From: a virus
IMG/VR virus record: IMGVR_UViG_3300007735_000784
Span: 7,238 to 71,237 of that record
DNA length: 64,000 nucleotides
Reading direction: 5' to 3' (one strand)
Shown: one piece after another, positions 7,232-33,259 of the stretch
How positions within the stretch are numbered: position 1 is the stretch's first letter
How the letters are laid out: each line of letters starts with the position of its first letter
Position numbers and translations under genes: made by a program
The notes under the pieces: model-generated
Database searches by the model: none
What the model saw: only the letters and a program-made list of their open reading frames with translations
What the model was told of the DNA's origin: nothing

Positions 7232-7241
7232 ACACGAATAT

Positions 7242-11251: not shown

Positions 11252-12827
<1,576 letters not shown>

Positions 12828-12844
12828 TTTAAAAAATCAATAAT

Positions 12845-13300
12845 ATGGCATCAGTACCTTTATTAGGAGCAACACCCAAGACAACCTATTGTACTTGGCT
12901 TCCAGCAACAACAGCAAATACTAAATCAGATGGTTCTGGAACTATAGGAACAGATATTTTACTTGCCTGTACAGCAGGTTCTAATGGAGCATGGATAGAC
13001 AGAATACGTCTTATGCCTGTAGGGACAACAGCAGCAACATCAACAGCAACAACAGCTACAGTAGCTAGAATATTTGTATCTACTCAAACATCTGGAGCTA
13101 CCACAAACCTAAATACTCACTCATGGCAAGAGATGTCGTGTCCTGCTCAAACAGTAAATCAAGCTACAGTATCTATTAGCCCAGTAGATGTTCCTGCCGG
13201 TTTTAGATTAGAAGCCGGAGAAAGTATTTTATTTTCTATGTATCATGTAGCAGCAGCTAATACAGCATGGGAATGTACAGTTTTTTCAACAGATTACTAA
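12845..13300 (+). CDS. Fibre-associated structural protein
   Basis: Thr/Ala-rich; TAGSNGAWIDRI, GFRLEAGESI. Confidence 0.45.
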   Translation: MASVPLLGATPKTTYCTWLPATTANTKSDGSGTIGTDILLACTAGSNGAWIDRIRLMPVGTTAATSTATTATVARIFVSTQTSGATTNLNTHSWQEMSCPAQTVNQATVSISPVDVPAGFRLEAGESILFSMYHVAAANTAWECTVFSTDY

Positions 13301-13310
13301 AATCTAGTCT

Positions 13311-14243
13311 ATGAGTTATATAGAAGGAGGAGAAAACGAATTATATAAGAATACTTGTAGAGTAAGCACTTTTAGACCGTTACAACAAAGGGGTTCAAGT
13401 ATTGAAAGATGGCAAACTTGGCAACCAACACCTCAAGAAACCATGGCCTATTTTTTATGTATAGGTGGTGGTGGTGGTGGTGGAGGAGGATTCTCAGGAC
13501 TTACACTAACAGCTAGAGGTGGAGGAGGTGGTGGAGGTTCCGCAGGTCAAACAAGAGGATTAATACCTTTAATGTTCTTACCTAAAATATTATATATCTC
13601 AGTAGCAGTAGGTGGTGCAGGAGGAACCGCAGGAGTAAGTGGTGGAACTGCAAGTAGAAGTTATATATCTGTAGCTCCTAATAGCACTGCGGGAAATCGT
13701 GTTATGTCATCTGCTGGATCTTCTAATGGAGCTACTGGTGGAGCTGCTGGTACAGCCGCAGGTGCATCTGCTGGTGGTAATGGAGAAGCAGCAGGTGCTT
13801 TCACTGACCAGATGGTAGGTCAATGGGGAATATTTCAGTTTTTAGCAGGTAAGAATGGAGCTGCGGCTGGTGCTTTAGGATTAGCAGGAGGATCCAATAC
13901 ATTATATACTACAGGTTGTTCTAATGGAGGTAGTGGTGGTGGAAGCACTACAGCACTTAATGTTGCAGGAGCAGGAGGTGCCCAAACTGGAGTTGGTATT
14001 TGGGATAGCATACCAGGAGGTGCTGTAGCAGGACCAATAGATGGATCTACAGGATATAATACTAGATTTGAAATGATACTTCCTTATGGGGGAAGCGGAG
14101 GAGCATCAGGAACAACAGGAATAGGAGGTAATGGTGGTGATGGAGGATTCCCAGGTGGAGGTGGCGGAGGAGGTGGAGGAGGAACTACAGGAGGAGCTGG
14201 TGGTAATGGAGGTGATGGAATAGTAATGATTATATCATGGTAA
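13311..14243 (+). CDS. Glycine-rich tail-fibre/receptor-binding protein, paralog 1
   Basis: IGGGGGGG, GGGGGGSAG, GGNGGDGIVMIISW. Confidence 0.7.
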   Translation: MSYIEGGENELYKNTCRVSTFRPLQQRGSSIERWQTWQPTPQETMAYFLCIGGGGGGGGGFSGLTLTARGGGGGGGSAGQTRGLIPLMFLPKILYISVAVGGAGGTAGVSGGTASRSYISVAPNSTAGNRVMSSAGSSNGATGGAAGTAAGASAGGNGEAAGAFTDQMVGQWGIFQFLAGKNGAAAGALGLAGGSNTLYTTGCSNGGSGGGSTTALNVAGAGGAQTGVGIWDSIPGGAVAGPIDGSTGYNTRFEMILPYGGSGGASGTTGIGGNGGDGGFPGGGGGGGGGGTTGGAGGNGGDGIVMIISW

Positions 14244-14258
14244 TTAAAATTTTAAGTT

Positions 14259-15194
14259 ATGTATATTGAACCAGGAGATAACAGTCTTAATAGAACTAGA
14301 AATAGAGTAAGTATGTTTACTACTATGGGAGGTGCTGTAGGTACTTCATGGCAAACATGGCAACCTAATCCAGATGAAACTATGGCTTACATTATATGTG
14401 TAGGAGGAGGAGGTTCTGGAGCAGGCGGCTTCTCCGGTCTAGCAGGTTCTATCCGTGGTGGTGGAGGTGGTGGAGGTGCAGCAGGACAGACTAGATGTAT
14501 AATCCCTTTAATGTTTTTACCTAAGATTCTTTATATTTCACCCGGAGCAGGAGGAGCATCAGTAGCCGCTTCTACAAATGGTAATCCTGGAACTTTATCT
14601 TATGTATGTGTTGCACCTAATACTACAGCAGCTAATGTTATTGTTCAATCTGGAGCCGCAAGAGCTTCTAACACAGTAGCAACAGCAGGATCAGGAACAA
14701 CAGCAGGAGCAGGTGGTACAGCAGAAACTATTAGCACTGTATTATTATGTGTAGTGGGACAGTGGGGACTATTACAGTTTCTTGCCGGTAAAGCAGGAGC
14801 AGCCGCAGGAGCCGTTACGGGAGCCGCAGGAGGATCTAATACATTATATACAGCAGGTTGTTCTAATGGTGGAGCTGGTGGAGCTAGTACTCCAGCAGCT
14901 AATACTAACTTTGCAGGAGGTGCCCAAACAGGTGCAGGTATATGGCCTACTATGCCAGGTGGTACAGCAGGAGGTAATCCTGGATCAGGGGCTACGGGTT
15001 ATAATAATATGTTTGAAATGATTTTGCCTTATGGAGGTACAGGTGGTGGTACTGGAGGTACAGCACTTACTGTAGCAGGAAATGGTGGTGATGGAGGCTT
15101 TCCTGGTGGTGGAGGTGGTGGCGGTGGTGGTGGTGTTACTGGAGGGAGAGGTGGTAAAGGTGGTGATGGTTGCGTATGGATAATCTCATGGTAA
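14259..15194 (+). CDS. Glycine-rich tail-fibre/receptor-binding protein, paralog 2
   Basis: Shares WQTWQP, IPLMFLPKILYIS, QFLAGK, FEMILPYGG and IISW with the upstream gene. Confidence 0.7.
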   Translation: MYIEPGDNSLNRTRNRVSMFTTMGGAVGTSWQTWQPNPDETMAYIICVGGGGSGAGGFSGLAGSIRGGGGGGGAAGQTRCIIPLMFLPKILYISPGAGGASVAASTNGNPGTLSYVCVAPNTTAANVIVQSGAARASNTVATAGSGTTAGAGGTAETISTVLLCVVGQWGLLQFLAGKAGAAAGAVTGAAGGSNTLYTAGCSNGGAGGASTPAANTNFAGGAQTGAGIWPTMPGGTAGGNPGSGATGYNNMFEMILPYGGTGGGTGGTALTVAGNGGDGGFPGGGGGGGGGGVTGGRGGKGGDGCVWIISW

Positions 15195-16888
15195 AATTTG
15201 ATGTAGTCCTCATAGCTAGAAACGAAGATAAAACACTTCCTCGTTTATTAAAATCACTTAATGAGTTTAAATCATTAGGTGGTAAAGTATATATATTAGA
15301 TACAGGTTCAAAAGATAATACAGTCCAAGTGGCTAAACAATGGGGATGCCACGTAGAAGAAGTAGGTGATAAGTTTAGAATCACAATTAATAAAGAACTT
15401 GCCAACCAAATAAATGCGTTTACAGGAACACAAATAGTAAAAGACGGTGATAGTGTATTTGACTACGCATCTGCCCGTAACTACATAGCTAACTTCGCTA
15501 CCCATGACATGATAGCCACTCCTGATTGTGATGAAATATGGACAAAATTTAATATAGATAAGATAAATCAAGCCGTAGAACAAGCCGATCAATTAGAATA
15601 TAACTTCGTATTTGCTCACGACGAGAACGGCAAAGAACTCGTAAAATTCCTACACTCTAAATTCTACAACAGAAATAAAATGAAATGGGTAGGCATTATC
15701 CATGAAGTATTACAAGGAGAAGGTAAGCGATTATTCCTAGATGAGAGTATAATTAAACTCGAACATTGGCAAAATCCAGAAACAAATAGAAGCGGATACC
15801 TACCTGGACTTGCTATTGATTGTTATACAAACCAAGATAATGACAGGAACGCCCACTACTTTGGTAGAGAGTTAATGTATCATGGATATTTTGAAGCAGC
15901 TATAAAACAGTTAGAACGACATATAGCTATGGATAAGTGGCCTACTGAAAGATCACAAAGCATGATATTTATAGGGGACTGTTTGCAATACATGAATAAA
16001 TTTGATGCGTCATGGTATTTAAAAGCGTTTGATCTAGAACCAAACCGCAGGGAACCTCTAATGAAACTTGCTGAATATTACTATCAGCAGGGCAAAAAAG
16101 AGCAAACCAGAGCCTATGGTGAAGCCGCACTAACCATCCAAGGCAATAATTTCTACGCAAATTACCAACCTTATTATGAAGATCGGCCACATGAACTATT
16201 GTATTGGGCATGGGATGGCATAGATAAAGCAAAATCGGATTATCATTGGGATCAAGCATATAAGTTTAACCCACATAACACTAAAACATTATCAGGAGCC
16301 TCATATAGGTTTAATCTACCAAAAGTTAGTATTATAATACCACAGCTAGGTAGAGAAGAAGGATTAAAAAGATGCTTAGACTCTATAAAAAACCTTGACT
16401 ACCCAAACGCTTTAATAGAAACCATCGTTGTTGAGGGAGAAGAAACAGTGCCTATCAAGGTTCAAAAAGGACTAGAAAAGTCTACCGGAGAATATATATG
16501 TTATGCTGCCAACGACGTAGAATTTACACCAGATAGCCTTAAAATAGCTATCCAAGACTCTATTAAACTAAACAAAGGACTTGTTTCATTTACAAGTGGA
16601 TCACTATTGCCGGACAATGGCAATATTTGTGAGCACTTTATAATTAAGCGAGAACTTATTGATAAGCTAGAAGCTAGACAAATATTCTCTACCGACTTTA
16701 ATCACGTAGGAGTAGATAATTGGCTATGGGCACAGGCTACTAAGTTAGATACATCATATAGATCAACAGCGTTTATACACCACTACCACTTCTCAAAAGG
16801 AGCTGAATTAGATAATGTTTATAAAAGGGGATGGGATAAAGTAATGAGAGATAGAGAAATTTTACAAAATAAATTAAGTAAATTATAA
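15188..16888 (+). CDS. GT2 glycosyltransferase with TPR repeats and a second C-terminal GT2 domain
   Basis: Likely ATG 15188 (MVKFDVVLIARNE), LDTGSKD, ARN, DCDE, IHE, TPR-like helices, then PKVSIIIP...ANDVEF. Confidence 0.8.
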   Translation: MVKFDVVLIARNEDKTLPRLLKSLNEFKSLGGKVYILDTGSKDNTVQVAKQWGCHVEEVGDKFRITINKELANQINAFTGTQIVKDGDSVFDYASARNYIANFATHDMIATPDCDEIWTKFNIDKINQAVEQADQLEYNFVFAHDENGKELVKFLHSKFYNRNKMKWVGIIHEVLQGEGKRLFLDESIIKLEHWQNPETNRSGYLPGLAIDCYTNQDNDRNAHYFGRELMYHGYFEAAIKQLERHIAMDKWPTERSQSMIFIGDCLQYMNKFDASWYLKAFDLEPNRREPLMKLAEYYYQQGKKEQTRAYGEAALTIQGNNFYANYQPYYEDRPHELLYWAWDGIDKAKSDYHWDQAYKFNPHNTKTLSGASYRFNLPKVSIIIPQLGREEGLKRCLDSIKNLDYPNALIETIVVEGEETVPIKVQKGLEKSTGEYICYAANDVEFTPDSLKIAIQDSIKLNKGLVSFTSGSLLPDNGNICEHFIIKRELIDKLEARQIFSTDFNHVGVDNWLWAQATKLDTSYRSTAFIHHYHFSKGAELDNVYKRGWDKVMRDREILQNKLSKL

Positions 16889-24228: not shown

Positions 24229-24736
24229 AAAAATAGCAGCCGCACAGCATTGGATTGACATAATGTATCCAGGCATCACCGACCCTATTAAAATAGAGAA
24301 GTTAAAGAAGGAGTATTTCTCCATGACCAAGAACGTGGCAGTCCGGCCAAAGAAGTACCCAAAGAAAAAGAAAATAGTGGTTCGGTATAAGTACAAAATC
24401 ACCACTAGAAACTTCCTCACACTAATTAAGGCTGAGAGAAACCACATCTTTAAAAGATTAAGGGAGTTTGGGGTGAAGCTCAGTTATGTGCAGCTTAGGT
24501 ATTTAATCCTTATTACTTATGAGCAGCTATATGACTATCCGCTTAAAGTATCACTAAAGAGGATGGGGATTAATCGTATTAAAACGCAAACCTTAGAGGA
24601 TCAGGGAGTCCTAAAAGACGGGGAATTAACCGACCTTGGTAAAATAGTTTACAACGAATGTATTAATGTAGTGGTTACTAGGAGTGGGTTTGAGGTGAAA
24701 GAAAGTAGTTTTAGGTATTGGATTTTTGAACAATAA
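24215..24736 (+). CDS. Basic protein with probable winged-HTH C-terminus
   Basis: LSYVQLRYL...LEDQGVL...LTDLGK. Confidence 0.45.
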   Translation: MVPDKKIAAAQHWIDIMYPGITDPIKIEKLKKEYFSMTKNVAVRPKKYPKKKKIVVRYKYKITTRNFLTLIKAERNHIFKRLREFGVKLSYVQLRYLILITYEQLYDYPLKVSLKRMGINRIKTQTLEDQGVLKDGELTDLGKIVYNECINVVVTRSGFEVKESSFRYWIFEQ

Positions 24737-24759
24737 TTGTATAATTTGTAACTTTAATT

Positions 24760-24767
24760 TATCTTTG
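24760..24767 (+). promoter_or_regulatory. Bacteroidota -7 promoter element upstream of the cassette array
   Basis: TATCTTTG ahead of ATG 24784. Confidence 0.55.
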
Positions 24768-24783
24768 GCGTTAAATAACATAT

Positions 24784-25002
24784 ATGGAAGAAACTAAAGT
24801 TGGCGTTTCGACAGAACGTAAAACAGGATACTACTGGATAGTATATAAGAGAAGAAAATGGATCTTCTATTATAATAAGGATAAGGAAGAATGGTATGAC
24901 GTTCTTAATTATAAGCGGTATTATGATTATGACTTTGATAAAATATACGAAACGCAACTTTTAGCTCCGGCTAATGAACCTAGTGAAAACTATAAGTGGT
25001 AG
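24784..25002 (+). CDS. Hypothetical protein
   Basis: 72-aa ORF ending 5 nt before the first TAAC of the array. Confidence 0.55.
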   Translation: MEETKVGVSTERKTGYYWIVYKRRKWIFYYNKDKEEWYDVLNYKRYYDYDFDKIYETQLLAPANEPSENYKW

Positions 25003-25007
25003 ACCGC

Positions 25008-25133
25008 TAACGTTTTGCGTGTATAAGAAGTGGCGGAATTAAAGCATAAAATTAACTTGAAAGCAATGCAGTTGAATATAACACTAATGTTTCTAAATGG
25101 CACAAAACCCGCCATTTTTTATACACGCTGTTA
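25008..25133 (+). repeat. Hairpin element E1
   Basis: TAAC GTTTT GCGTGTATAAGAAGTGGCGG ... CCGCCATTTTTTATACACGC T GTTA. Confidence 0.85.
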
Positions 25134-25163
25134 TGTGTATGTGGCGGTTTAAATAACGAAAAT

Positions 25164-25412
25164 ATGAAGATAAAAGCAATTTACATTAAGAACTTAAAAA
25201 TGAGTGAAGGCAAAGTTGCTGCACAAGTGGCACACGCTGTTAAGAATTTAGGAATAACGCCAACTGATTGTGATATAATAGTTTTAGGTGTTTCAACCAC
25301 TAAGTTTAATGAATTAACAGCACAGCACGAATGTTACATTCAACGAGATAAAGGATTAACAGAAGTAGAAAGTGGTACAGCAACAGCAGCGGCTTGGATA
25401 GATGTTCCGTAG
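25164..25412 (+). CDS. Minimal peptidyl-tRNA hydrolase Pth2-like protein (cassette 1)
   Basis: LKMSEGKVAAQVAHA and I.RDKGLTEVE.GT.T match PTH2 family signatures. Confidence 0.7.
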   Translation: MKIKAIYIKNLKMSEGKVAAQVAHAVKNLGITPTDCDIIVLGVSTTKFNELTAQHECYIQRDKGLTEVESGTATAAAWIDVP

Positions 25413-25480
25413 CCATTACATGTAACGAACAAGTATTTTAGTAGTGCGATTAATAGCAGAAAGTAACAATGAAACAAGAA

Positions 25481-25564
25481 TAACGGGTTGCGGCTTTGCG
25501 AAGTTGCTTAAAACACATAATATGGAAAAATACAGATTGATACAATTTTGCAAAGCCGCTGTTA
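25481..25564 (+). repeat. Hairpin element E2
   Basis: TAAC GGGTT GCGGCTTTGCGAAGTTG ... CAATTTTGCAAAGCCGC T GTTA. Confidence 0.85.
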
Positions 25565-25677
25565 GCAGTAGGTTCGTACCTATTCGCTATTACTTAATAG
25601 AGTTTTTCTGTTGGGTAATTTGCGGAATTGATTTTTACAAAAATTATCAAAGGTTCTATAAACGAACTTACCGCTAA
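25522..25677 (+). CDS. Small hypothetical protein (cassette 2)
   Basis: ATG in E2 loop (MEKYRLIQFCKAAVSSRF...); stop is the TAA of the next TAAC. Confidence 0.45.
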   Translation: MEKYRLIQFCKAAVSSRFVPIRYYLIEFFCWVICGIDFYKNYQRFYKRTYR

Positions 25678-25801
25678 CGTTTTCGGGCTTTGTGTCCGTT
25701 GGCGAATTAAACCACAAATGTTAAATTAAAAACAAATATTGATTATGAGCAAAAAAGTTGAATTGAAAGACAAAACCGCCAATGGCACAAAAACCGTGTT
25801 A
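25675..25801 (+). repeat. Hairpin element E3
   Basis: TAAC GTTTT CGGGCTTTGTGTCCGTTGGCG ... CGCCAATGGCACAAAAACCG T GTTA. Confidence 0.85.
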
Positions 25802-26026
25802 GGCGTAGGTTTTTATCGCTGTGGCCACTGTGGGCAACCGACAGATAAAGATGGTGAGCCGTTGGATTTAGAAGCGTGTAAAACATGGCAAGCAGATAAA
25901 GCAGAGTTAGTGCATGGAAATTGTTGCGTGCATGAACTACGCCAACGGCAGACAATTATAGTAACGAGGGATATGGCTATTGATGCAGGAGATATGTCGC
26001 TGGAGGGTCAGGAGTGGGTTTGGTAA
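25745..26026 (+). CDS. Small Zn-finger-like protein (cassette 3)
   Basis: ATG in E3 loop; CGHCG...HGNCC, VTRDMAIDAGD..LEG. Confidence 0.6.
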   Translation: MSKKVELKDKTANGTKTVLGVGFYRCGHCGQPTDKDGEPLDLEACKTWQADKAELVHGNCCVHELRQRQTIIVTRDMAIDAGDMSLEGQEWVW

Positions 26027-26035
26027 ACTTACGCC

Positions 26036-26123
26036 TAACGTTTTGCGTATATGAGAAGTGGCACTTGTAGAATGTTGATGTTTAGCACAAATGTTTATGT
26101 GCAATTTCTTATATACGCTGTTA
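26036..26123 (+). repeat. Hairpin element E4
   Basis: TAAC GTTTT GCGTATATGAGAAGTGGCAC ... GTGCAATTTCTTATATACGC T GTTA. Confidence 0.85.
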
Positions 26124-26228
26124 TGTTCTCGTTGCGGTTTATTAACTAAAAACTTAAATCGAATCACAGAAGTAGTATTTATTTTTTTGTGCGGTGGCAA
26201 AAATTAATTTGAAAAATTAAAAAGAATT

Positions 26229-26987
26229 ATGAGTAAGAATATAGAATTAGACAAGTTTTATACACCAAAAGAAACGGCAAGACAATGTATTGAATTGTTT
26301 TTTGAAACATTTACTGATACGACTGAAATAATTGAACCAAGCGCAGGAAATGGTAATTTCAGTTTACAAATACCAAACTGTATTGCTTATGATTTAGAAC
26401 CCGAACACGAAAGTATAATAAGGCAAGATTTTCTTAAACTGGATTTACCTTACAAGAAAGGTAGAGCATTTATTGGAAACCCACCTTTCGGAGATAGAAA
26501 CAATCTTGCGAGAAGTTTTTACAAACACGCTTGTAAAATGGGTGATATGATTGGTTTTATACTCCCAATAAGCCAACTCGAAAATAGTGATAGTTTATAT
26601 CATTTTGACTTGATTAAAAGTGTTGATTTAGGTGTATTAGAATATAGTAATATGAAAGTACATTGCTGTTTCAATTTGTACAAAAGACCAAAGAATGGTA
26701 AACTAAATAGTAAGCCTAAATTAAGTAGTGAATTATTTACAATACATAGAGACGACCAAGATGGTTATAATGAACTTGATTATGATTTATGTATATTTAG
26801 GCGAGGTGCAAGTAGTGGTAAAGAAAAATTTACTGACTTACATACACAAACATATAAGATTGTTGTAAATGATAAAACCAATGTTGAGTATGTTAGAAAT
26901 ACTATATTGAAATTTGATTGGCAGAATTACAAGAAACACCAATCAGCACCAAGTATTAGTAAAAATGATATTTATAGACTTTTTTAA
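26229..26987 (+). CDS. DNA amino-methyltransferase, N6-adenine type (cassette 4)
   Basis: DKFYTP, IEPSAGNG (motif I) then GNPPFG (motif IV). Confidence 0.8.
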   Translation: MSKNIELDKFYTPKETARQCIELFFETFTDTTEIIEPSAGNGNFSLQIPNCIAYDLEPEHESIIRQDFLKLDLPYKKGRAFIGNPPFGDRNNLARSFYKHACKMGDMIGFILPISQLENSDSLYHFDLIKSVDLGVLEYSNMKVHCCFNLYKRPKNGKLNSKPKLSSELFTIHRDDQDGYNELDYDLCIFRRGASSGKEKFTDLHTQTYKIVVNDKTNVEYVRNTILKFDWQNYKKHQSAPSISKNDIYRLF

Positions 26988-27063
26988 AAAGCGAGGGAAG
27001 AAAAAATAAATACGGTATGATACCACAAAACTATAATCGAAGCACAATTGTAGCAATGGAGCA

Positions 27064-27152
27064 TAACGTATGGTGCTATGAGAAGGTTTGCCTTGCAGAA
27101 ATGTTCAAATTACCTAAAATGTTATTGGCAAACTTGCTTATAGCACGTGTTA
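27064..27152 (+). repeat. Hairpin element E5
   Basis: TAAC GTATG GTGCTATGAGAAGGTTTGCC ... GGCAAACTTGCTTATAGCAC GT GTTA. Confidence 0.85.
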
Positions 27153-27198
27153 CATGCAGTTTTTGTGCGTTGGATTAGTAAAAAATTAAAAGTAAAAT

Positions 27199-27804
27199 AT
27201 GAAGAAAGTATTGAATTTATTTGCAGGAATTGGGGGCAACAGAAAACATTGGAAAGATGTAGAAGTAACCGCAATAGAATACAATGAGGAAATTGCCAAT
27301 GTTTATAAGCAATTACATCCAAACGACAATGTTATCGTTGCTGATGCACACGAATATTTGACTAAACATTGGAGAGAGTTTGATTTTATATGGAGTAGCC
27401 CACCATGCCAAAGCCACAGCAAAGTTAGAATGATGGCAAGTAAAGGTGGAAGTTATGATGCTGTAATGCCTGATATGAGATTGTGGGCTGAAATAATCTT
27501 TTTGCAGAACTTTACAAAGAATACGGATATAAAGTTTGTGGTTGAAAATGTAAAACCATACTACGAACCATTTGTAAAACCAACAACAAAACTTGGTAGG
27601 CACTTATTTTGGGCAAACTTTGAAATACCACAAACTGAAATTAAAGACGGACTTACACACAATGAAAGAGGAAGTTCTGAAAAAGGTTATTTCGATTTGC
27701 GACCATATAAAATGGAACACAGGAAAGACCAGATTATTCGTAATTGCGTTGACCCCAATGTCGGAGATTACGTTCTTCGGTGTGCGTTGGGAAATTGCAC
27801 ATAA
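27199..27804 (+). CDS. C5-cytosine DNA methyltransferase, short form (cassette 5)
   Basis: LNLFAGIGG, SSPPCQSHS, VVENV, GRHLFW. Confidence 0.85.
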   Translation: MKKVLNLFAGIGGNRKHWKDVEVTAIEYNEEIANVYKQLHPNDNVIVADAHEYLTKHWREFDFIWSSPPCQSHSKVRMMASKGGSYDAVMPDMRLWAEIIFLQNFTKNTDIKFVVENVKPYYEPFVKPTTKLGRHLFWANFEIPQTEIKDGLTHNERGSSEKGYFDLRPYKMEHRKDQIIRNCVDPNVGDYVLRCALGNCT

Positions 27805-27861
27805 CGAACAGGGCTATACGCTCGGTTTGTTTTTCACAAACTGGCGTTATAGCCCATGTTA
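27802..27861 (+). repeat. Hairpin element E6 (minimal, 60 bp)
   Basis: TAAC GAACA GGGCTATACGCTCGGTTTGT TTTTC ACAAACTGGCGTTATAGCCC AT GTTA. Confidence 0.85.
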
Positions 27862-27921
27862 CCTGTCTGGTTTGTTTTTAATTTTTGTGGAAAGGAAGTC
27901 ACGCTTAAACGTATAATAGAT

Positions 27922-28272
27922 ATGAAAACTAACAAAGAAGAAAAAGAATACATAGAAAAATGCCTTGATGCCTACCAAAATGGAGGTGTGCTGTGGCTTA
28001 TTGAAAGGACTGATACAAATGAGTTCTGCTATAAAGAATTGAAGATGTGGCAAAGCAATAAGCCCGAAACGTGGAGAGATACATTATTGTGGTCAAAAGA
28101 CATTTCATTTTTCCATGTATTCTTTTTAACCAAAGAAGATGCTGAAAAGGAATTGCAAGAAAATATGTTTATGCAATTTACAGAAGGAGGTTGCCCTTGT
28201 TGTGGACACGGCTCAACTGAAATACCAATTGCAATTACTGAACACGAATTTGTGCGGATGGGGAAAAAATAA
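27922..28272 (+). CDS. Hypothetical protein (cassette 6)
   Basis: Probable ATG 27922 (MKTNKEEK); VLWLIER...CPCCG...ITEHEFV. Confidence 0.55.
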   Translation: MKTNKEEKEYIEKCLDAYQNGGVLWLIERTDTNEFCYKELKMWQSNKPETWRDTLLWSKDISFFHVFFLTKEDAEKELQENMFMQFTEGGCPCCGHGSTEIPIAITEHEFVRMGKK

Positions 28273-28287
28273 AAACAAACTTGCAGG

Positions 28288-28393
28288 TAACGGTTCGGGT
28301 ATTGCCGTTCGCTGTGTTCACAAATTAGATGCGTTCATGATTCGTGAACAGATGAAAATAATGAACAGCCACAATGACGGTAATACCATGTTA
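28288..28393 (+). repeat. Hairpin element E7
   Basis: TAAC GGTTCG GGTATTGCCGTT ... GACGGTAATACC AT GTTA. Confidence 0.75.
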
Positions 28394-28500
28394 TAAGATG
28401 GAGGTGGCGAGAAAAAAGGTTTGTAGTATCGGTTGGAAATCTGAAACCTTGAAATACCCATTAAGCTCGACAGTAGCCAACCATAGCCACCTCTTTCTTA

Positions 28501-28613
28501 TAACGTTGGGTATTGGCGTTGTTGCCTCACAAATGTTTAATTGAAATACTAAATTTAATATTATGAAAAAAGATAAATTGAAACACGAAAGCAATAACGC
28601 CAATGTGCTGTTA
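28501..28613 (+). repeat. Hairpin element E8
   Basis: TAAC GTTGG GTATTGGCGTTGTTGC ... GCAATAACGCCAATGTGC T GTTA. Confidence 0.85.
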
Positions 28614-28829
28614 TGTGCTGATAATTTTACGGGTTACTTCGATGATGCTAACAAACCAATTTTTGTTGGTGATAAATTGAAAAGCGAATGGAACTATGAA
28701 GTTATTGTTGTAAAAGACGAAGATGGTGATTACAGTGGAAAATTGGTTTGTGATAATAACCATAGTTGCAAAAACATTCCTTATGCTTTAAATAAAGGTA
28801 AAGGTTATAGTAAAATTATTTGCACATAA
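28563..28829 (+). CDS. YopX-like small protein (cassette 8)
   Basis: FTGYFDDANKPIFVGD resembles the YopX TG..D.NG..IYEGD motif; ATG in E8 loop, stop in the TAAC. Confidence 0.55.
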   Translation: MKKDKLKHESNNANVLLCADNFTGYFDDANKPIFVGDKLKSEWNYEVIVVKDEDGDYSGKLVCDNNHSCKNIPYALNKGKGYSKIICT

Positions 28830-28944
28830 CGTATGGGTATTGGCGAAGTTGCCGAACCGAAAGCTAAATTGAAAAACAAAAGTTGAAATTATGGACGAAA
28901 GTTTAATTGAAAAACAGAACGGCAATTTTGCCAATACCGTGTTA
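28827..28944 (+). repeat. Hairpin element E9
   Basis: TAAC GTATG GGTATTGGCGAAGTTGCCG ... CGGCAATTTTGCCAATACC GT GTTA. Confidence 0.85.
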
Positions 28945-29574
28945 GGTGCAGTGCCTTCTGTGGTGTATAATGAGGATTGTGTAGAGGCTTTAAAACGCTT
29001 TGACGATAACTACTTTGATATTGCTATTGTAGACCCACCTTATGGGCTTGGGAATAGATTAAGCGATGGAGGTGGCAAGCTAAAAAATACTCCTATGGCT
29101 GTGCTTTACAGAGATAAAGATTGGGATGTATTACCAACAGCCGAATATTGGGAGCAGTTGTTTAGAGTAAGCAAAAATCAAATGGTTTTTGGGGCTAATT
29201 ACTTTCTTGAATATTTGCCGAGCAGTAGAGGTATAATTTGTTGGGATAAAAAACAAGATATGCCAACGCTTTCGGCTTGGGAATTAGTTTGGACATCATT
29301 TGATAAGCCGAGCAAAATATACAAGAAAGTAAGCACAGATTTAGACCGCTTTCATCCAACCCAAAAACCTATTGGCGTTTATGATTTTTGCTTACATTTT
29401 GCAAAAGCACAGCCACAAATGAAAATGCTTGACACCCACGTTGGAAGTGGAAGTAGCAGAATAGCTGCCCATAAGATGGGGCTACAATACACAGGATTTG
29501 AAATTGATACAGAATATTATGAGAAACAAGAAAAGCGTTTTAAAGACTTCAAATCACAATTACGGTTGTTTTAG
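28891..29574 (+). CDS. Beta-class N4-C/N6-A DNA methyltransferase (cassette 9)
   Basis: IVDPPYG, HPTQKP, LDTHVGSGSS, GFEID. Confidence 0.85.
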   Translation: MDESLIEKQNGNFANTVLGAVPSVVYNEDCVEALKRFDDNYFDIAIVDPPYGLGNRLSDGGGKLKNTPMAVLYRDKDWDVLPTAEYWEQLFRVSKNQMVFGANYFLEYLPSSRGIICWDKKQDMPTLSAWELVWTSFDKPSKIYKKVSTDLDRFHPTQKPIGVYDFCLHFAKAQPQMKMLDTHVGSGSSRIAAHKMGLQYTGFEIDTEYYEKQEKRFKDFKSQLRLF

Positions 29575-29627
29575 CGGTGTCGGTGGCATTGCACCTAACT
29601 ACTGTATATAAGCAATAAAACTAAAGC

Positions 29628-29855
29628 ATGAAGATAACACTATCAAATATTTATGTACTAAAATGGCAGTTAAAAGACAACCCACAATACAAATGGACCT
29701 TATGCGGTAAATGTATTAACACTAAAACTGGTCGTGAAATAAAAAAGACTATTTGTGGAAGATCCATTGGATACTGCATTAAAGGCAAATTTGTATCAGC
29801 AAATACACTTAGGAAAGAATTAGAAACAATAAAAGAAATAGAATGTCCATTTTAA
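29628..29855 (+). CDS. Small basic protein, NUMOD4-like
   Basis: W.LKDNPQY.....GKCINTKTGREIK. Confidence 0.4.
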   Translation: MKITLSNIYVLKWQLKDNPQYKWTLCGKCINTKTGREIKKTICGRSIGYCIKGKFVSANTLRKELETIKEIECPF

Positions 29856-29865
29856 CTACAACAAT

Positions 29866-30108
29866 ATGACATTACCAGAAGCACTAGATTACGTATTATC
29901 CAATATGGAATACGGGGAAGAAAATTGGCTGAGTAAGGATGATATTAAGGAGCTTGTTCAGCGAGAATTAGGATACAGACCTAGACCAGGACACTTTGAG
30001 GAGGCTTTTATTATTAGCAGGGTTAAGTATGATGTTATATATAAGAATGATAGAGGATGGATTAGGATTAAGAGGAATAAACTTGTCGAAACGCAAACTA
30101 TAGACTAA
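29866..30108 (+). CDS. Hypothetical protein
   Basis: 80-aa ORF. Confidence 0.5.
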   Translation: MTLPEALDYVLSNMEYGEENWLSKDDIKELVQRELGYRPRPGHFEEAFIISRVKYDVIYKNDRGWIRIKRNKLVETQTID

Positions 30109-30512
30109 TGGAAAACATAATTAAGGAACTACAAAATCAGATTGCTGCCCTAAATGAAAGACTAACCGCCTTAGAGAATAAGAATAAGCGGTCATCGACA
30201 AAATTAGAGCCGGCAGAATGGAGAACTAACTTTGGCGTTTATAAAAAAGAACTAGACTTAGCATTTAAAACGCTATCTTTGGATACTAATTTCATAGCAG
30301 AACAAGAAAGGTTTAATCCTAATCTCGATATTAAACTATCAATGGAGAAGGCAGTAGTAAACTTCTGGGGAACGGAAGCCGGATGGAAATATAAGAAGAA
30401 GTCAAAAACCAATGACCTTGATTGGAAGCGCACACTCACAAATGCAATAGACATGAATAAAGTTTATAAGCAGAAAGGTCAATTAAATAACCCTTCAACT
30501 ATGGTGTATTAA
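30108..30512 (+). CDS. Putative replication initiator/helicase-loader-like protein
   Basis: Coupled to the primase; NFWG.EAGW.YKKK......DWK.T C-terminal motif. Confidence 0.4.
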   Translation: MENIIKELQNQIAALNERLTALENKNKRSSTKLEPAEWRTNFGVYKKELDLAFKTLSLDTNFIAEQERFNPNLDIKLSMEKAVVNFWGTEAGWKYKKKSKTNDLDWKRTLTNAIDMNKVYKQKGQLNNPSTMVY

Positions 30513-32311
30513 TGCTAGTTATCAACCTAGAAGATAAGTCCGAGCACGAAATAGAGGTAACGAGGGATGGGGAAAACGCCATGCCTTGCCCTGTATGCTC
30601 CAAAGACCGGAAGAAAGAAAGGATTAAATGCTTCTCTTTTAACTATGCTAAAAAAGCAGGCAGGTGCAATCATTGTGGGATAGTGCTGGTGGAGAAGCGA
30701 GAATACATAGAGCCTGTTAAATATAAGAGGCCGGTATTTAAGCAAGAAGCATCTTACCTATCACAGAATGTTATTTCTTGGTTTGCATCCAGGTCCATAT
30801 CTATTAAAACGCTAAGTTTATTTAAGATTACAGAAGGCAAAGAATGGATGCCACAGGTAGGAGCCGAAAGAAACACTATCCAATTTAATTATTTCAGAAA
30901 CGGGGAATTAATCAATACCAAGTTTAGGGATGGCGAGAAGAATTTTAAATTAGTATCGGAGGCCGAGCTTATTCCTTATAATTTAGATGCAGTCATTAAT
31001 GGTAAGCAGGTAATATGGGTAGAGGGGGAAATGGATTGCTTATCTGTGCATGAATCAGGGCTTCATAATGTAATTAGCGTTCCAAACGGAGCCACAGTAG
31101 GGAAAAACAACCTAACCTACCTTGATAATTGCATAGATTTATTCTCAGAAGATACTGAGCATATCCTAGCCTTTGATAATGACTTAGCCGGTAACGCACT
31201 TAGGGATGAATTTGTAAGAAGGCTTGGGGCCGAGAAATGTAGTAAGGTTACGTTCTTAGATTGCAAAGATGCCAATGAGTGCTTAGTGAAGTACGGAAGG
31301 GATGCTGTTAAAAACGCTATACTTAGCAAGCAGGAGTTTCCGGTAACAGGGATATTTACCGCCAAAGATATTAATGATGACATTGATGACTATTTTTATA
31401 ATGGGCTACCGGAAGGATCAGATATTGGGCTGCCTTATTTTGACGAGTTATTAAAGTTCCACCCAGGTTACATCACTACCATCACCGGTATCCCTTCGCA
31501 TGGTAAGTCAGAGTTCTTGGATTTTATAATGACTAGCTTAAATATAAGGCATAAATGGTCATTTGGCATTTACTCCCCAGAGAACTATCCATTGCAGCTA
31601 CATTTTAGTAAGATAGCGGAGAAGCTATTAGGTAAGTCGTTTAGTGTTATGAACGAAGCCGAACTTGGCGTTGCAAAAAAATACTTCAATGACAACTTCC
31701 ACTTCATCAAGCCGGAGGAGAATAATAAACTAGAGAACATACTAGAGAAAACAAAATACCTTGTAAGGAAGAAAGGCATACGGGCATTTATAATAGATGC
31801 TTGGAATAAGCTAGAACATGATTGGCAAGGATCTGAAACGCAATACATATCTAAGGAGTTAGATAAACTTGCAACCTTCTGTGAAAGAAACGGGGTGCAT
31901 CTATTTTTAGTAGCGCATCCGACCAAGATTAGCAAGGATAAACAGACAGGGCTATATGAAGTGCCTAATTTATATTCAATAAGCGGATCTGCCAATTTTT
32001 TTAATAAGACACATAATGGTATTTCGGTGTATAGGAATTTTACCACTAACCGGACAGAGATATACGTACAGAAGGTAAAGTTTAAGCATTGGGGTAAGCA
32101 TGGGATGGTAGAATTAGAGTGGAACCCTGCTAATGGAAGATACCACAAGTACACACCGGATTCTGTTAATTGGATTACAGGGCAGAGCAGACAAGTAGAG
32201 TTTGTAGAGGAAAACGCCAAAGTTAGCGTTCCAACAGAACGAAAATTAATACCTTTAGCAGAAGCATTAAGTAAAAATATTCCCACAGGGGACGAAGAAC
32301 CACCATTTTAA
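30512..32311 (+). CDS. Bifunctional primase-helicase (T7 gp4/Twinkle type)
   Basis: CPVC Zn finger, TOPRIM VEGEMD/DND.AG/KDANE, Walker A GIPSHGKS, IIDAWN, LVAHP. Confidence 0.9.
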   Translation: MLVINLEDKSEHEIEVTRDGENAMPCPVCSKDRKKERIKCFSFNYAKKAGRCNHCGIVLVEKREYIEPVKYKRPVFKQEASYLSQNVISWFASRSISIKTLSLFKITEGKEWMPQVGAERNTIQFNYFRNGELINTKFRDGEKNFKLVSEAELIPYNLDAVINGKQVIWVEGEMDCLSVHESGLHNVISVPNGATVGKNNLTYLDNCIDLFSEDTEHILAFDNDLAGNALRDEFVRRLGAEKCSKVTFLDCKDANECLVKYGRDAVKNAILSKQEFPVTGIFTAKDINDDIDDYFYNGLPEGSDIGLPYFDELLKFHPGYITTITGIPSHGKSEFLDFIMTSLNIRHKWSFGIYSPENYPLQLHFSKIAEKLLGKSFSVMNEAELGVAKKYFNDNFHFIKPEENNKLENILEKTKYLVRKKGIRAFIIDAWNKLEHDWQGSETQYISKELDKLATFCERNGVHLFLVAHPTKISKDKQTGLYEVPNLYSISGSANFFNKTHNGISVYRNFTTNRTEIYVQKVKFKHWGKHGMVELEWNPANGRYHKYTPDSVNWITGQSRQVEFVEENAKVSVPTERKLIPLAEALSKNIPTGDEEPPF

Positions 32312-32320
32312 AATAGATAT

Positions 32321-32500
32321 ATGGAAGAATTTGTAAAAGAACTTGAAAGATACGTACAGGAAATTAAATTAAGAGCATTACCTGGACAAACAAGGGAGGA
32401 AACGGAGAATTTCGCTAAAAAAGTAGCGGCTGCATTTCCTAATAAAAATATAGTATTAGAATTTAATGATTCTTTACTAACAATAAAATCAGTAAATTAG
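32321..32500 (+). CDS. Hypothetical protein (59 aa)
   Basis: MEEFVKELERY... fills the gap between helicase and GroES-like gene. Confidence 0.45.
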   Translation: MEEFVKELERYVQEIKLRALPGQTREETENFAKKVAAAFPNKNIVLEFNDSLLTIKSVN

Positions 32501-32506
32501 AAACAC

Positions 32507-33259
32507 ATGATAGAATCAATTAAACCAATTAACAACCAAGTCTTAATAAGACTAACCAGAAGGGGAGATGAGATAGAATTATCTAACGGCCACAAACTAC
32601 ACCTTGACACTTCTTATAATGAAGAAGAACACCGGCCAGTAGTAGGAGAGGTAATAGCTGTACCTGCAAAACTTAAATTCGTGGATGGGGATTTATCCTC
32701 AATGCCTTGGAAAACAGAAATGCAGCTACAAAAGGGAGATATTGTAATTATAAGGAGGCCGGCAGTATCAAGCTGCTTTATACAGAACTCAGGAAGAATT
32801 ATAGAACAAGATGGGGAGCAGTACCTATTTATAAAGTATAGCGACATCATTTTGGCAAAACGCCAACTTTCACGAGATACCGAAAACTTCCAAACAGTAG
32901 AAGTGGATGGAAATAAGATGGCAGTGATTATGCTAAACGGATTTATGCTATTGGAGCCTGATGAGGAAGAATACAAAACTTTCCTAGAACTACCAAAATC
33001 AGTAAGGAGATTATCTAAATTAACCGGTACAGTAAGATTTATAGGTATGCCAAACTTGGCGTATCAAAAAATGGTAGATGCCACAAGCCAAGATACCACA
33101 TTACCACCCGACTATTACTTTGACGTACAACCTGGAGATAGGGTAGTATTCCACAAAGCAGCCGATATACCATTGGAGCAGGATCTACACCAATCATTTG
33201 AAGGTAGGGATAAGAAGTATTTTAGATGCCAAAGGCACAAGTTATTAGCGAAACTTTAA
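32507..33259 (+). CDS. Tandem GroES-like co-chaperonin
   Basis: IKPINNQVLIR...GEVIAVP...LQKGDIV and LNGFMLLEP...GTVRFIG...VQPGDRVVF. Confidence 0.6.
   Translation: MIESIKPINNQVLIRLTRRGDEIELSNGHKLHLDTSYNEEEHRPVVGEVIAVPAKLKFVDGDLSSMPWKTEMQLQKGDIVIIRRPAVSSCFIQNSGRIIEQDGEQYLFIKYSDIILAKRQLSRDTENFQTVEVDGNKMAVIMLNGFMLLEPDEEEYKTFLELPKSVRRLSKLTGTVRFIGMPNLAYQKMVDATSQDTTLPPDYYFDVQPGDRVVFHKAADIPLEQDLHQSFEGRDKKYFRCQRHKLLAKL

Follow-up and report, generated by a model that had tools for sequence, protein, structure and literature searches.

Integron attC sites are folded, imperfect hairpins that lie between ..AAC and GTT.. and function together with the integrase IntI and the attI site, and the recombinogenic bottom strand of attC reads 5'-..AAC, stem, stem, GTT..-3'. 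Xer recombinases can likewise use a folded single-strand substrate, as at the attP of CTX-phage, and pdif modules are bounded by inverted sites. Here, we describe an array of nine small units, each made up of a hairpin followed by a cassette, that occupies positions 25008-29599 of a 64,000-nucleotide stretch of viral DNA (hereafter the window; positions 7,238 to 71,237 of IMG/VR record IMGVR_UViG_3300007735_000784). In this array, the two ends of individual cassettes are complementary to each other. We believe that, when an attC-like recombination site folds, these ends probably supply one half each of its outer stem; in our reading, the array is an integron-like, integrase-less cluster whose closest published case is provided by the attC clusters of phages (Qi et al., 2023; PMC9892861).

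In the accessible portion of that work, 17 attC clusters without integrase (CALINs), called with IntegronFinder and HattCI, are described from virulent phages, and of the six phage sites that were tested, five were inserted by IntI1 into attI1 (Qi et al., 2023; PMC9892861). Polaribacter phage P12002L is given there with two sites and with methyltransferases; a site of this phage is among those that IntI1 recombined into attI1. The general phenomenon has therefore already been published. A second relevant precedent, again as far as the accessible text goes, comes from T4-type phages, where the stem-loop regulatory cassettes termed PeSLs bring about shuffling and are proposed to give rise to mini-circles (Arbiol et al., 2010; PMC2839356). 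The window studied here has a G+C content of ~36% and covers the greater part of a virus record that is 71,237 bp long and carries direct terminal repeats. Its gene content is that of a tailed phage and includes a YqaJ exonuclease, an ERF annealing protein and a primase-helicase, and the nine-unit array is situated between the early genes and the replication genes.

Results

Complementary unit ends in the window

Read over positions 24500-30500, the locus contains ten TAAC points (25008, 25481, 25675, 26036, 27064, 27802, 28288, 28501, 28827 and 29596) and nine GTTA restarts (25130, 25561, 25798, 26120, 27149, 27858, 28390, 28610 and 28941), and each TAAC...GTTA interval is an imperfect hairpin of 52-118 nt. 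Hairpins and units are equal in number, nine of each, and no hairpin follows the last TAAC. Each cassette opens (GTTA...) with the reverse complement of the stretch in which it closes (...TAAC), as had been proposed in an earlier, sequence-only reading of the locus, and does not pair in this way with the ends of other units; the sequences quoted in that reading are present where it placed them. When every start was compared with every reverse-complemented end, using an anchored, gapped score of the bases beyond GTTA, the diagonal dominated the matrix: C1-C9 score 1, 9, 9, 5, 4, 12, 11, 13 and 9 with their own ends (mean 8.1), the 72 off-diagonal cells have a mean of 1.4 and a maximum of 6, and when partners were permuted 100000 times, the observed sum was never reached. 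Flanks across one and the same hairpin score 0, 0, 5, 0, 0, 0, 0, 1 and 4.

Pairing of the arms is strong in C2, C3, C6, C7, C8 and C9 and moderate in C4, whose arms contain an indel, and in C5, whose arms contain two transitions that pair as G.T on the + strand. A repeat search independently recovers three of the arm pairs, including that of C7 and, over 21 nt at 90%, that of C8. For C1, pairing through wobbles had been suggested; it is found when the TAAC at 25423 is taken as the end (10 positions, with 8 matches and 2 wobbles), but the pair is weak if the end is the TAAC at 25481. The complementarity of 14-23 bp given in the same reading applies to the window and does not carry over as a general length, which is 15 bp across 197 related cassettes.

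A shared site grammar in phages and Bacteroidota

Related loci were fetched using the methyltransferase of C9, the last cassette, which yielded 80 viral loci and 28 loci from Bacteroidota genomes or bins. Sites were detected as TAAC, a stem in which G.T pairs were allowed, and then GTTA, with a score of at least 11 and with both TAAC and GTTA required; the pattern TAACGNNNNNNG by itself is unspecific (23 matches versus 15 expected). Over 940,568 bases, the gene strand yields 272 sites with this detector, as against 18 for the opposite one. At least one site is present in 78 of 82 sources and in 20 of the 28 genome loci, and the same architecture was recognized by eye in Flavobacterium phage hemulen6-1.

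Across 81 related loci the complementarity of the ends follows a stricter rule. The arm profile was taken from the 197 cassettes, out of 269, that have a detectable partner. Positions 1-10 and 12-15 of the arm are complementary (0.82-1.0) and those from position 16 onward are unrelated, which sets the arm at 15 bp. Position 11 agrees in 0.02 of cases, being G in the start in 189 of the 197 cassettes and A in the reverse-complemented end in 192, and thus forms a fixed G.T pair. Circularity was avoided in a second, arm-independent test, for which cassettes were set by consecutive hairpins alone. Here, 86 of 156 distinct arm pairs match at eight or more of ten variable positions, compared with 1.3% for shuffled partners and 2.3% across one hairpin; these 86 pairs contain 62 different six-base words, and 84 of them have G/A at position 11. 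Where a homologous cassette occurs in another phage, its arm words differ and the change in one arm is compensated in the other, and the C9-type cassette family (58 copies) alone has six different words at positions 5-9, each with its compensation on the other arm. Full fits to the attC core are found for RYYYAAC in 31 and for GTTRRRY in 33 of 260 distinct sites.

P12002L carries sites of the window's family on its gene strand around the methyltransferases. In this phage (L082), the methyltransferase region at 29250-32700 on the minus strand is an array of this site family with short hairpins, and some of its units use a CAAC/GTTG core in place of TAAC/GTTA. Since the detector requires TAAC and GTTA, it undercounts the site family.

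Covariation of the hairpins and folding of the circular form

Fifty diverse sites of the 112-128 nt class were aligned and analyzed with RNAalifold and a pair counter. The hairpins have a mean column identity of 59%, and their consensus stem is a continuous series of 19 pairs without single-base bulges or extrahelical bases, with five unpaired nucleotides after TAAC-G versus one before GTTA. Among the 24 hairpin pairs called, 17 show changes on both sides, and the covariation score is 0.664 compared with 0.134 after shuffling. In the alignment, 97.5% of cells pair, versus 68.6% in shuffled alignments and 39-45% with the partner slid, a percentage that is partly built in because the aligned sites were pre-selected by the detector for stem pairing and that is in this respect more affected than the compensatory counts. 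TAAC and GTTA, both of which the detector required, are invariant in 50 of 50 aligned sites and present at all nine sites of the window. Two G.T pairs are near-invariant: one, found in 48 of 50 sites, joins the G that follows TAAC to the T that precedes GTTA, and the other, in mid-stem, is found in 50 of 50.

The circular form was modeled in silico by joining unit end, preceding hairpin and start arm and folding the product with DNA parameters, using ten candidate ends for each unit. The cognate end gives the most stable fold for seven of the nine units, in which its advantage over the mean of the non-cognate ends is 4.9 to 12.2 kcal/mol (C3, -29.2 versus -19.9 kcal/mol; C6, -30.0 versus -19.8; C8, -28.3 versus -16.2; C9, -30.4 versus -19.7); that of C5 ranks 2nd and that of C1 10th. 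The idea that a circularised unit would form one long stem around its hairpin, put forward in the sequence-only reading, is therefore supported by these predictions, which yield a continuous stem and rank the cognate end first in seven of nine cases. In all nine units the + strand folds more stably than the - strand, by 0.8-8.8 kcal/mol, as predicted from the conserved G.T wobbles, which become C.A mismatches on the other strand.

Homology breaks at TAAC

A BLASTN comparison of positions 24500-30500 with 155 other loci gave 210 high-scoring segment pairs (HSPs) of at least 60 nt. Fifty-eight of these begin at a TAAC (-8 to +2 nt; 3.8 expected), 66 end at one (-5 to +8 nt; 4.9 expected), and none crosses a TAAC by 30 nt on both sides, so that no other locus has two adjacent cassettes in common with the window. 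These breakpoints bear out the earlier suggestion that the units moved independently. For unit 9, position 28827 is the exact start of 13 HSPs, and 49 have their end at 29592 or 29599. Assembled metagenome contigs (Logan) from four of 23 listed runs (X2-X5) leave the window sequence at 25675/25680, 26036 and 28288, and one contig of 494 nt (run X4) corresponds exactly to 27800-28293, that is, to unit 6. We also came across a joint leading from 29581 back to 25673, with 13 other letters in between, which represents a different array order in another phage and not a circle of C9.

In three of five hairpin clusters the downstream arm is kept and the upstream flank varies (15 upstream vs 2 downstream, 12 vs 1 and 3 vs 1), a count that is biased because all three clusters precede the methyltransferase with which the loci were fetched. 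The hairpin that belongs to a unit is thus usually the upstream one. Based on this linkage, and on the match between nine hairpins and nine units, we place the usual crossover at the left TAAC; cleavage at TAA/C and at TAAC/G cannot be told apart because the bases concerned are invariant.

The array end and a candidate recombinase

Roughly 30 of 79 hairpin-less junctions read, by eye, TAAC, T and then a loosely conserved (C/A)TA..CGC motif. The terminal junction of the window (29596-29620, + strand) has TAAC followed by T and no hairpin, reading TAAC TACTGTATATAAGCAAT. By analogy with integrons, the hairpin-less TAAC-T is an attI-like array end. At one bacterial locus (L100), the hairpin-less junction reads TAAC TACTATATGTAT, and a recombinase gene starts ~55 bp further on.

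The phage record itself contains no match to PF00589, NF040815, PF00239 or PF01797, which cover tyrosine recombinases, XerA-type recombinases, serine recombinases and Y1 transposases, respectively. When 2436 open reading frames (ORFs) from the 82 sources were clustered, no family besides the query methyltransferase occurred in more than 14 sources, and a 381-aa ORF adjoining the hemulen6-1 array has no NCBIfam match. None of five array-bearing Bacteroidota genomes encodes a protein over the TIGR02249 integron-integrase cut-off; the best matches cover profile positions 2-180 and 238-315 only and skip positions 181-237, the IntI-specific region. A Xer/XerA-like recombinase is encoded within ~1 kb of the last cassette at four genome loci (L086, L087, L100 and L106) and at one viral locus (L009). 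Against the NF040815 cut-off of 220, two of the bacterial copies score 234.5 and 227.6 bits and the viral copy falls below it with 200.3 bits. At L086, the methyltransferase is preceded by a hairpin that, judged by eye, is the same as HP8 of the window. Sites lie near five of the seven Xer-like genes in array-bearing genomes and, when the sample was widened to 201 genomes of the class, a homologue at E<=1e-40 was present in 105 of them, a tally that includes the unpublished genome G099 and in which ordinary Xer proteins may be among the matches.

Units and cargo of the array

All features of the array lie on the + strand. The phage backbone ends at the left boundary TAAC (25008-25011), after which come a G and the first hairpin, HP0. 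Unit 1 (25012-25484) is composed of HP0 (25012-25129; hairpin score 19) and C1 (from 25130), which carries an 82-aa PTH2-like ORF (25164-25412; Pfam PTH2, E 1.2e-06). An HP0-like hairpin (25008-25135) is found again in L107 with 90.7% identity. The true end of C1 is likely the TAAC at 25423-25426, followed by a remnant of 58 nt that ends in the second TAAC at 25481-25484; these 58 nt between the two TAACs (25427-25484), downstream of the PTH2-like gene, may be what is left of a decayed unit. Unit 2 (25485-25678) consists of HP1 (25485-25560) and C2 (25561-25678; arms 25561-25577/25662-25678) with a 51-aa ORF that starts at an ATG in the hairpin loop (25522) and whose TAA stop is formed by the first three bases of the terminal TAAC. 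As a whole, this unit (25481-25679) recurs alone in L068 with 83% identity. Unit 3 (25679-26039) joins HP2 (25679-25797) to C3 (25798-26039; arms 25798-25812/26025-26039), and its 93-aa ORF, which has no Pfam or PHROG match, begins at an ATG in the loop (25745).

The next two units carry methyltransferases. Unit 4 (26040-27067) contains HP3 (26040-26119) and C4 (26120-27067; arms 26120-26135/27053-27067, with the indel) with a 252-aa DNA methyltransferase (26229-26987; phrog_799, E 1.2e-12; NPPF motif by eye), and unit 5 (27068-27805) contains HP4 (27068-27148) and C5 (27149-27805; arms 27149-27162/27792-27805) with a 201-aa C5-cytosine methyltransferase-like ORF (27199-27804; PF00145, E 2e-11), the TAA stop of which lies inside the terminal TAAC. 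Unit 6 (27806-28291) is formed by HP5 (27806-27857) and C6 (27858-28291; arms 27858-27880/28270-28291, with an indel) and has a 138-aa ORF (27856-28272) to which no function was assigned; its ATG at 27856 overlaps the T-GTTA core.

Unit 7 (28292-28504) comprises HP6 (28292-28389) and C7 (28390-28504; arms 28390-28408/28486-28504), in which no convincing ORF is seen. The interior of C7 (28411-28477) shares ~84% identity with a stretch that lacks annotation and separates tRNA-His from tRNA-Cys in Vibrio phage KVP40, and the match is found in 17 Vibrio phage records in all, KVP40 and 16 others. The pairwise alignment with KVP40 shows a compensatory helix change, and the C7 interior matches neither an Rfam family nor a tRNA. 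The cargo of C7 may therefore be a small RNA with a defined structure. More generally, Rfam returned no family at gathering score, the sole match with E<=1 being WsnRNA46, which we take as a chance match (26.5 bits, far under its gathering score of 65.3), and ARAGORN found no tRNA.

Unit 8 (28505-28830) is made up of HP7 (28505-28609) and C8 (28610-28830; arms 28610-28630/28810-28830); its 88-aa ORF starts at an ATG in the loop (28563) and stops at the first three bases of the terminal TAAC. Unit 9 (28831-29599) consists of HP8 (28831-28940) and C9 (28941-29599; arms 28941-28955/29585-29599) and encodes a 227-aa N6/N4 DNA methyltransferase (PF01555, E 4.1e-10) from an ATG in the loop (28891). 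Within unit 9, the hairpin and the first ~100 nt of the methyltransferase (28827-29045) match many loci at 92-95%, the last ~170 nt (29431-29599) are 75-85% identical across many loci, and the middle diverges. This pattern suggests mosaic exchange inside the methyltransferase gene, perhaps of its target-recognition part.

Taken over the array, the ATG lies inside the preceding hairpin loop for five cargo ORFs (among them 25522-25677 and those starting at 25745, 28563 and 28891), and the TAA of the terminal TAAC is the stop codon of three (C2, C5 and C8), so that the recombination site supplies translation signals. The loops also carry repeated CACAAA/ACAAA motifs in an A-rich context (25713-25730 and 28528-28545 in the window; columns 50-120 of the 50-site hairpin alignment), which could serve as expression signals or be bound by an accessory protein. 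Elsewhere in the window (11553-16888), a collagen-repeat protein adjoins glycine-rich proteins and a GT2 glycosyltransferase.

Discussion

Our analysis argues that the complementary ends of the units belong to recombination sites that come together in the circular form. A unit comprises a hairpin, a GTTA/15-nt arm, the cargo and a complementary arm ending in TAAC. Within the array, a hairpin has the end arm of one unit before it and the start arm of the following unit after it, so that sites in the array are hybrids, pairing only via TAAC/GTTA and a few consensus positions. Excision at TAA/C or TAAC/G on both sides, followed by closure, would bring the unit's own arms together around its hairpin in a single long stem on the + strand, which is the counterpart of the recombinogenic attC bottom strand and is marked by the conserved G.T wobbles. 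We propose that site-specific recombination at TAAC, with a tyrosine recombinase probably supplied in trans, passes units back and forth between phages and the chromosomes of Bacteroidota, and that new units enter at the hairpin-less TAAC/T array end. The complementarity and its specificity, the covariation of arms and hairpins, the breaks at TAAC and the absence from this phage of the four recombinase and transposase families searched for are observations; we infer single-strand folding in vivo, the existence of circles, where within TAACG the crossover lies and which enzyme acts. The methyltransferase cargo (C4, C5 and C9) is presumably anti-restriction. The sequence-only reading had invoked the logic of integron R''/R' complementarity, and this logic is matched by the TAAC-hairpin-GTTA layout, the cassette-specific complementarity, the hybrid array sites and the compensation on both arms.

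Several observations weigh against this explanation. C1 fits poorly in both the scoring and the folding, and 70 of the 156 arm pairs defined by hairpins alone match at fewer than eight of ten positions, for which missed intermediate sites, indels or decay could be the cause. The paired percentage of the aligned hairpins is, as noted, partly built in, and the three hairpin clusters that favor a crossover at the left TAAC come from a biased sample. In the other two of the five clusters both flanks vary (6 upstream and 5 downstream, and 4 and 4); a single crossover at the left TAAC can therefore not explain all exchanges, some of which must use the other side or another route. The assembled contigs of runs X2-X5, in which rare circles cannot show, contain no circular junction. 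The link between recombinase and array is modest, with a recombinase near the array in four of the 28 genome loci and one of the 80 viral loci, and so is the enrichment in the wider sample, where a site lies no further than 1.5 kb away in six of 29 recombinase loci compared with roughly 1-2 expected (best 30, with L152/G099 dropped). Finally, the site of P12002L that recombined in the published assay (Qi et al., 2023; PMC9892861) need not be one of those that we assign to the window's family.

How do other explanations fare against the same evidence? The array could be the remnant of a classical integron, that is, a CALIN with ordinary attC sites served by an IntI of the host, in which case the extended complementarity would be a lineage-specific flavour. 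The layout of AAC, stem, stem and GTT and the cassette-specific core complementarity do match attC, Bacteroidota are listed among the integron phyla in the accessible parts of reviews, and the published phage attC clusters include one P12002L site recombined by IntI1, in a phage that has sites of the window's family (Qi et al., 2023; PMC9892861). We nevertheless consider this unlikely, given that the five array-bearing genomes lack a protein over the integron-integrase cut-off and their best matches skip the IntI-specific positions, that the RYYYAAC and GTTRRRY cores are rarely complete, that the consensus stem is free of single-base bulges, and that the recombinase found beside some arrays fits the XerA-type model and not IntI. 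Still less probable, in our view, is an origin as PeSL-like regulatory cassettes, whose promoter or terminator hairpins would be shuffled by homologous recombination, for example by the phage's own ERF and YqaJ proteins. Both of these proteins are indeed encoded by the phage, start codons and A-rich leaders lie within the hairpin loops, and stem-loop regulatory cassettes with shuffling and proposed mini-circles are on record, at least in the accessible text (Arbiol et al., 2010; PMC2839356). Homologous exchange, however, does not predict cassette-specific end complementarity and its compensation; hairpins that are 59% identical per column, with covarying stems, would be poor substrates for it, and the breakpoints fall at TAAC and not within the repeats.

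A structure acting at the RNA level must also be considered, with G.U-compatible helices serving in the transcript for processing, termination or translational control, the pairing of the ends closing the mRNA, and modularity arising as a by-product. Every conserved G.T is wobble-compatible on the coding strand, the + strand folds better in nine of nine units, and five hairpin loops hold start codons. A single-stranded DNA site would likewise need strand-biased folding, however, and the exact homology breaks at TAAC, the hairpin-less attI-like end and the neighboring tyrosine recombinases go unexplained; nor is there an Rfam family at gathering score. We therefore rate a purely RNA-level explanation marginally below the PeSL-like one, although a role in RNA and a role in DNA recombination are compatible with each other. 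Least probable is that each cassette is a small transposon with terminal inverted repeats (MITE-like) that targets hairpins and whose ends are transposase binding sites. The ends are inverted repeats that open with a constant GTTA, but they carry 62 different words between units, so no single transposase could read them, and the fixed mismatch at position 11 is strand-asymmetric. Moreover, no target-site duplications were noted in the junction sequences of the window, and the phage record has no Y1-family transposase, DDE transposases not having been searched for.

Returning to the attC-like explanation, it is quite possible, if a little short of likely, that we are dealing with a separate integron-like gene-capture system of Bacteroidota and their phages, which works without IntI and uses a Xer/XerA-type recombinase on folded single-strand sites. 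In such a system, the active strand may be encoded by conserved G.T wobbles (at arm position 11, at the base after TAAC and in mid-stem) and not by extrahelical bases, and the 15-bp unit-specific outer stem may make a free unit a far better folded substrate than the hybrid sites of the array, which would bias the system towards capture and retention. If this is true, the translation start inside the site would let a virulent phage express any captured unit, chiefly anti-restriction methyltransferases, and would explain the gene-by-gene swapping of methyltransferases in virulent phages of abundant aquatic Bacteroidota. Methyltransferase content has been linked to plating efficiency in Flavobacterium phages, in a study whose accessible text does not mention cassettes (Nilsson et al., 2020; PMC7077304). 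The site grammar of TAAC/G, a 15-bp unit-specific arm and a fixed G.T is precise and differs from that of classical attC, and thus bears on how folded-DNA recombination sites choose strand and direction and on whether integron-like capture has evolved repeatedly.

Comparison with known systems

The likeness to Xer/dif systems is that, by analogy, a Xer-type tyrosine recombinase could act on a hairpin of one strand. Unlike dif and pdif modules, window-type arrays are tandem and have unit-specific arm words, and no dif-like 28-bp site was seen, none having been searched for. PeSL cassettes are the nearest phage analogue: they, too, are stem-loops between small accessory phage genes that combine expression signals with module shuffling and for which mini-circles are proposed. 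According to the accessible text, however, PeSLs recombine by repeat homology (Arbiol et al., 2010; PMC2839356), whereas the repeats of the window covary, break at a four-base core and have complementary ends of their own, which PeSL cassettes do not predict.

The phage CALINs come closer. As in the window, the accessible description is of virulent phages with integrase-less clusters and methyltransferase cargo, and P12002L is a phage of Flavobacteriia, although its sites are treated there as ordinary attC (Qi et al., 2023; PMC9892861). By the CALIN criterion, our own detector gives nine sites in 4.6 kb and no integrase, these sites not being IntegronFinder or HattCI calls. For the 15-bp unit-specific arm with a fixed G.T, the strand bias through wobbles, the start codons within the sites and the Xer-like neighbor, we found no earlier description in the open literature, as far as it is accessible, the nearest being the same study of phage attC clusters.

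The comparison with integrons proper shows both a common logic and a distinct grammar. Like attC, the window sites are bounded by ..AAC/GTT.. and folded as imperfect hairpins, and window-type sites conserve secondary structure over sequence. As in integron cassettes, the first bases of the linear unit complement the opposite end of that unit, since circularisation unites the two in a single site, and the sites in the array are hybrid. Further shared traits are one strand that folds better, a hairpin-less insertion end and single small genes that are mostly in one orientation. A complete integron would in addition have an IntI with its additional domain, which was found neither in the phage record nor in the five array-bearing genomes. 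The arms measure 15 bp and contain a fixed G.T at position 11, as opposed to the 7-bp core of attC, and the RYYYAAC/GTTRRRY core consensus is poorly met (31 and 33 of 260). In place of extrahelical bases, the window-type sites have a bulge of 4-5 nt on the 5' side and invariant G.T wobbles. Moreover, the hairpin here precedes the gene and often holds its start codon, which places the ORFs on the counterpart of the attC bottom strand.

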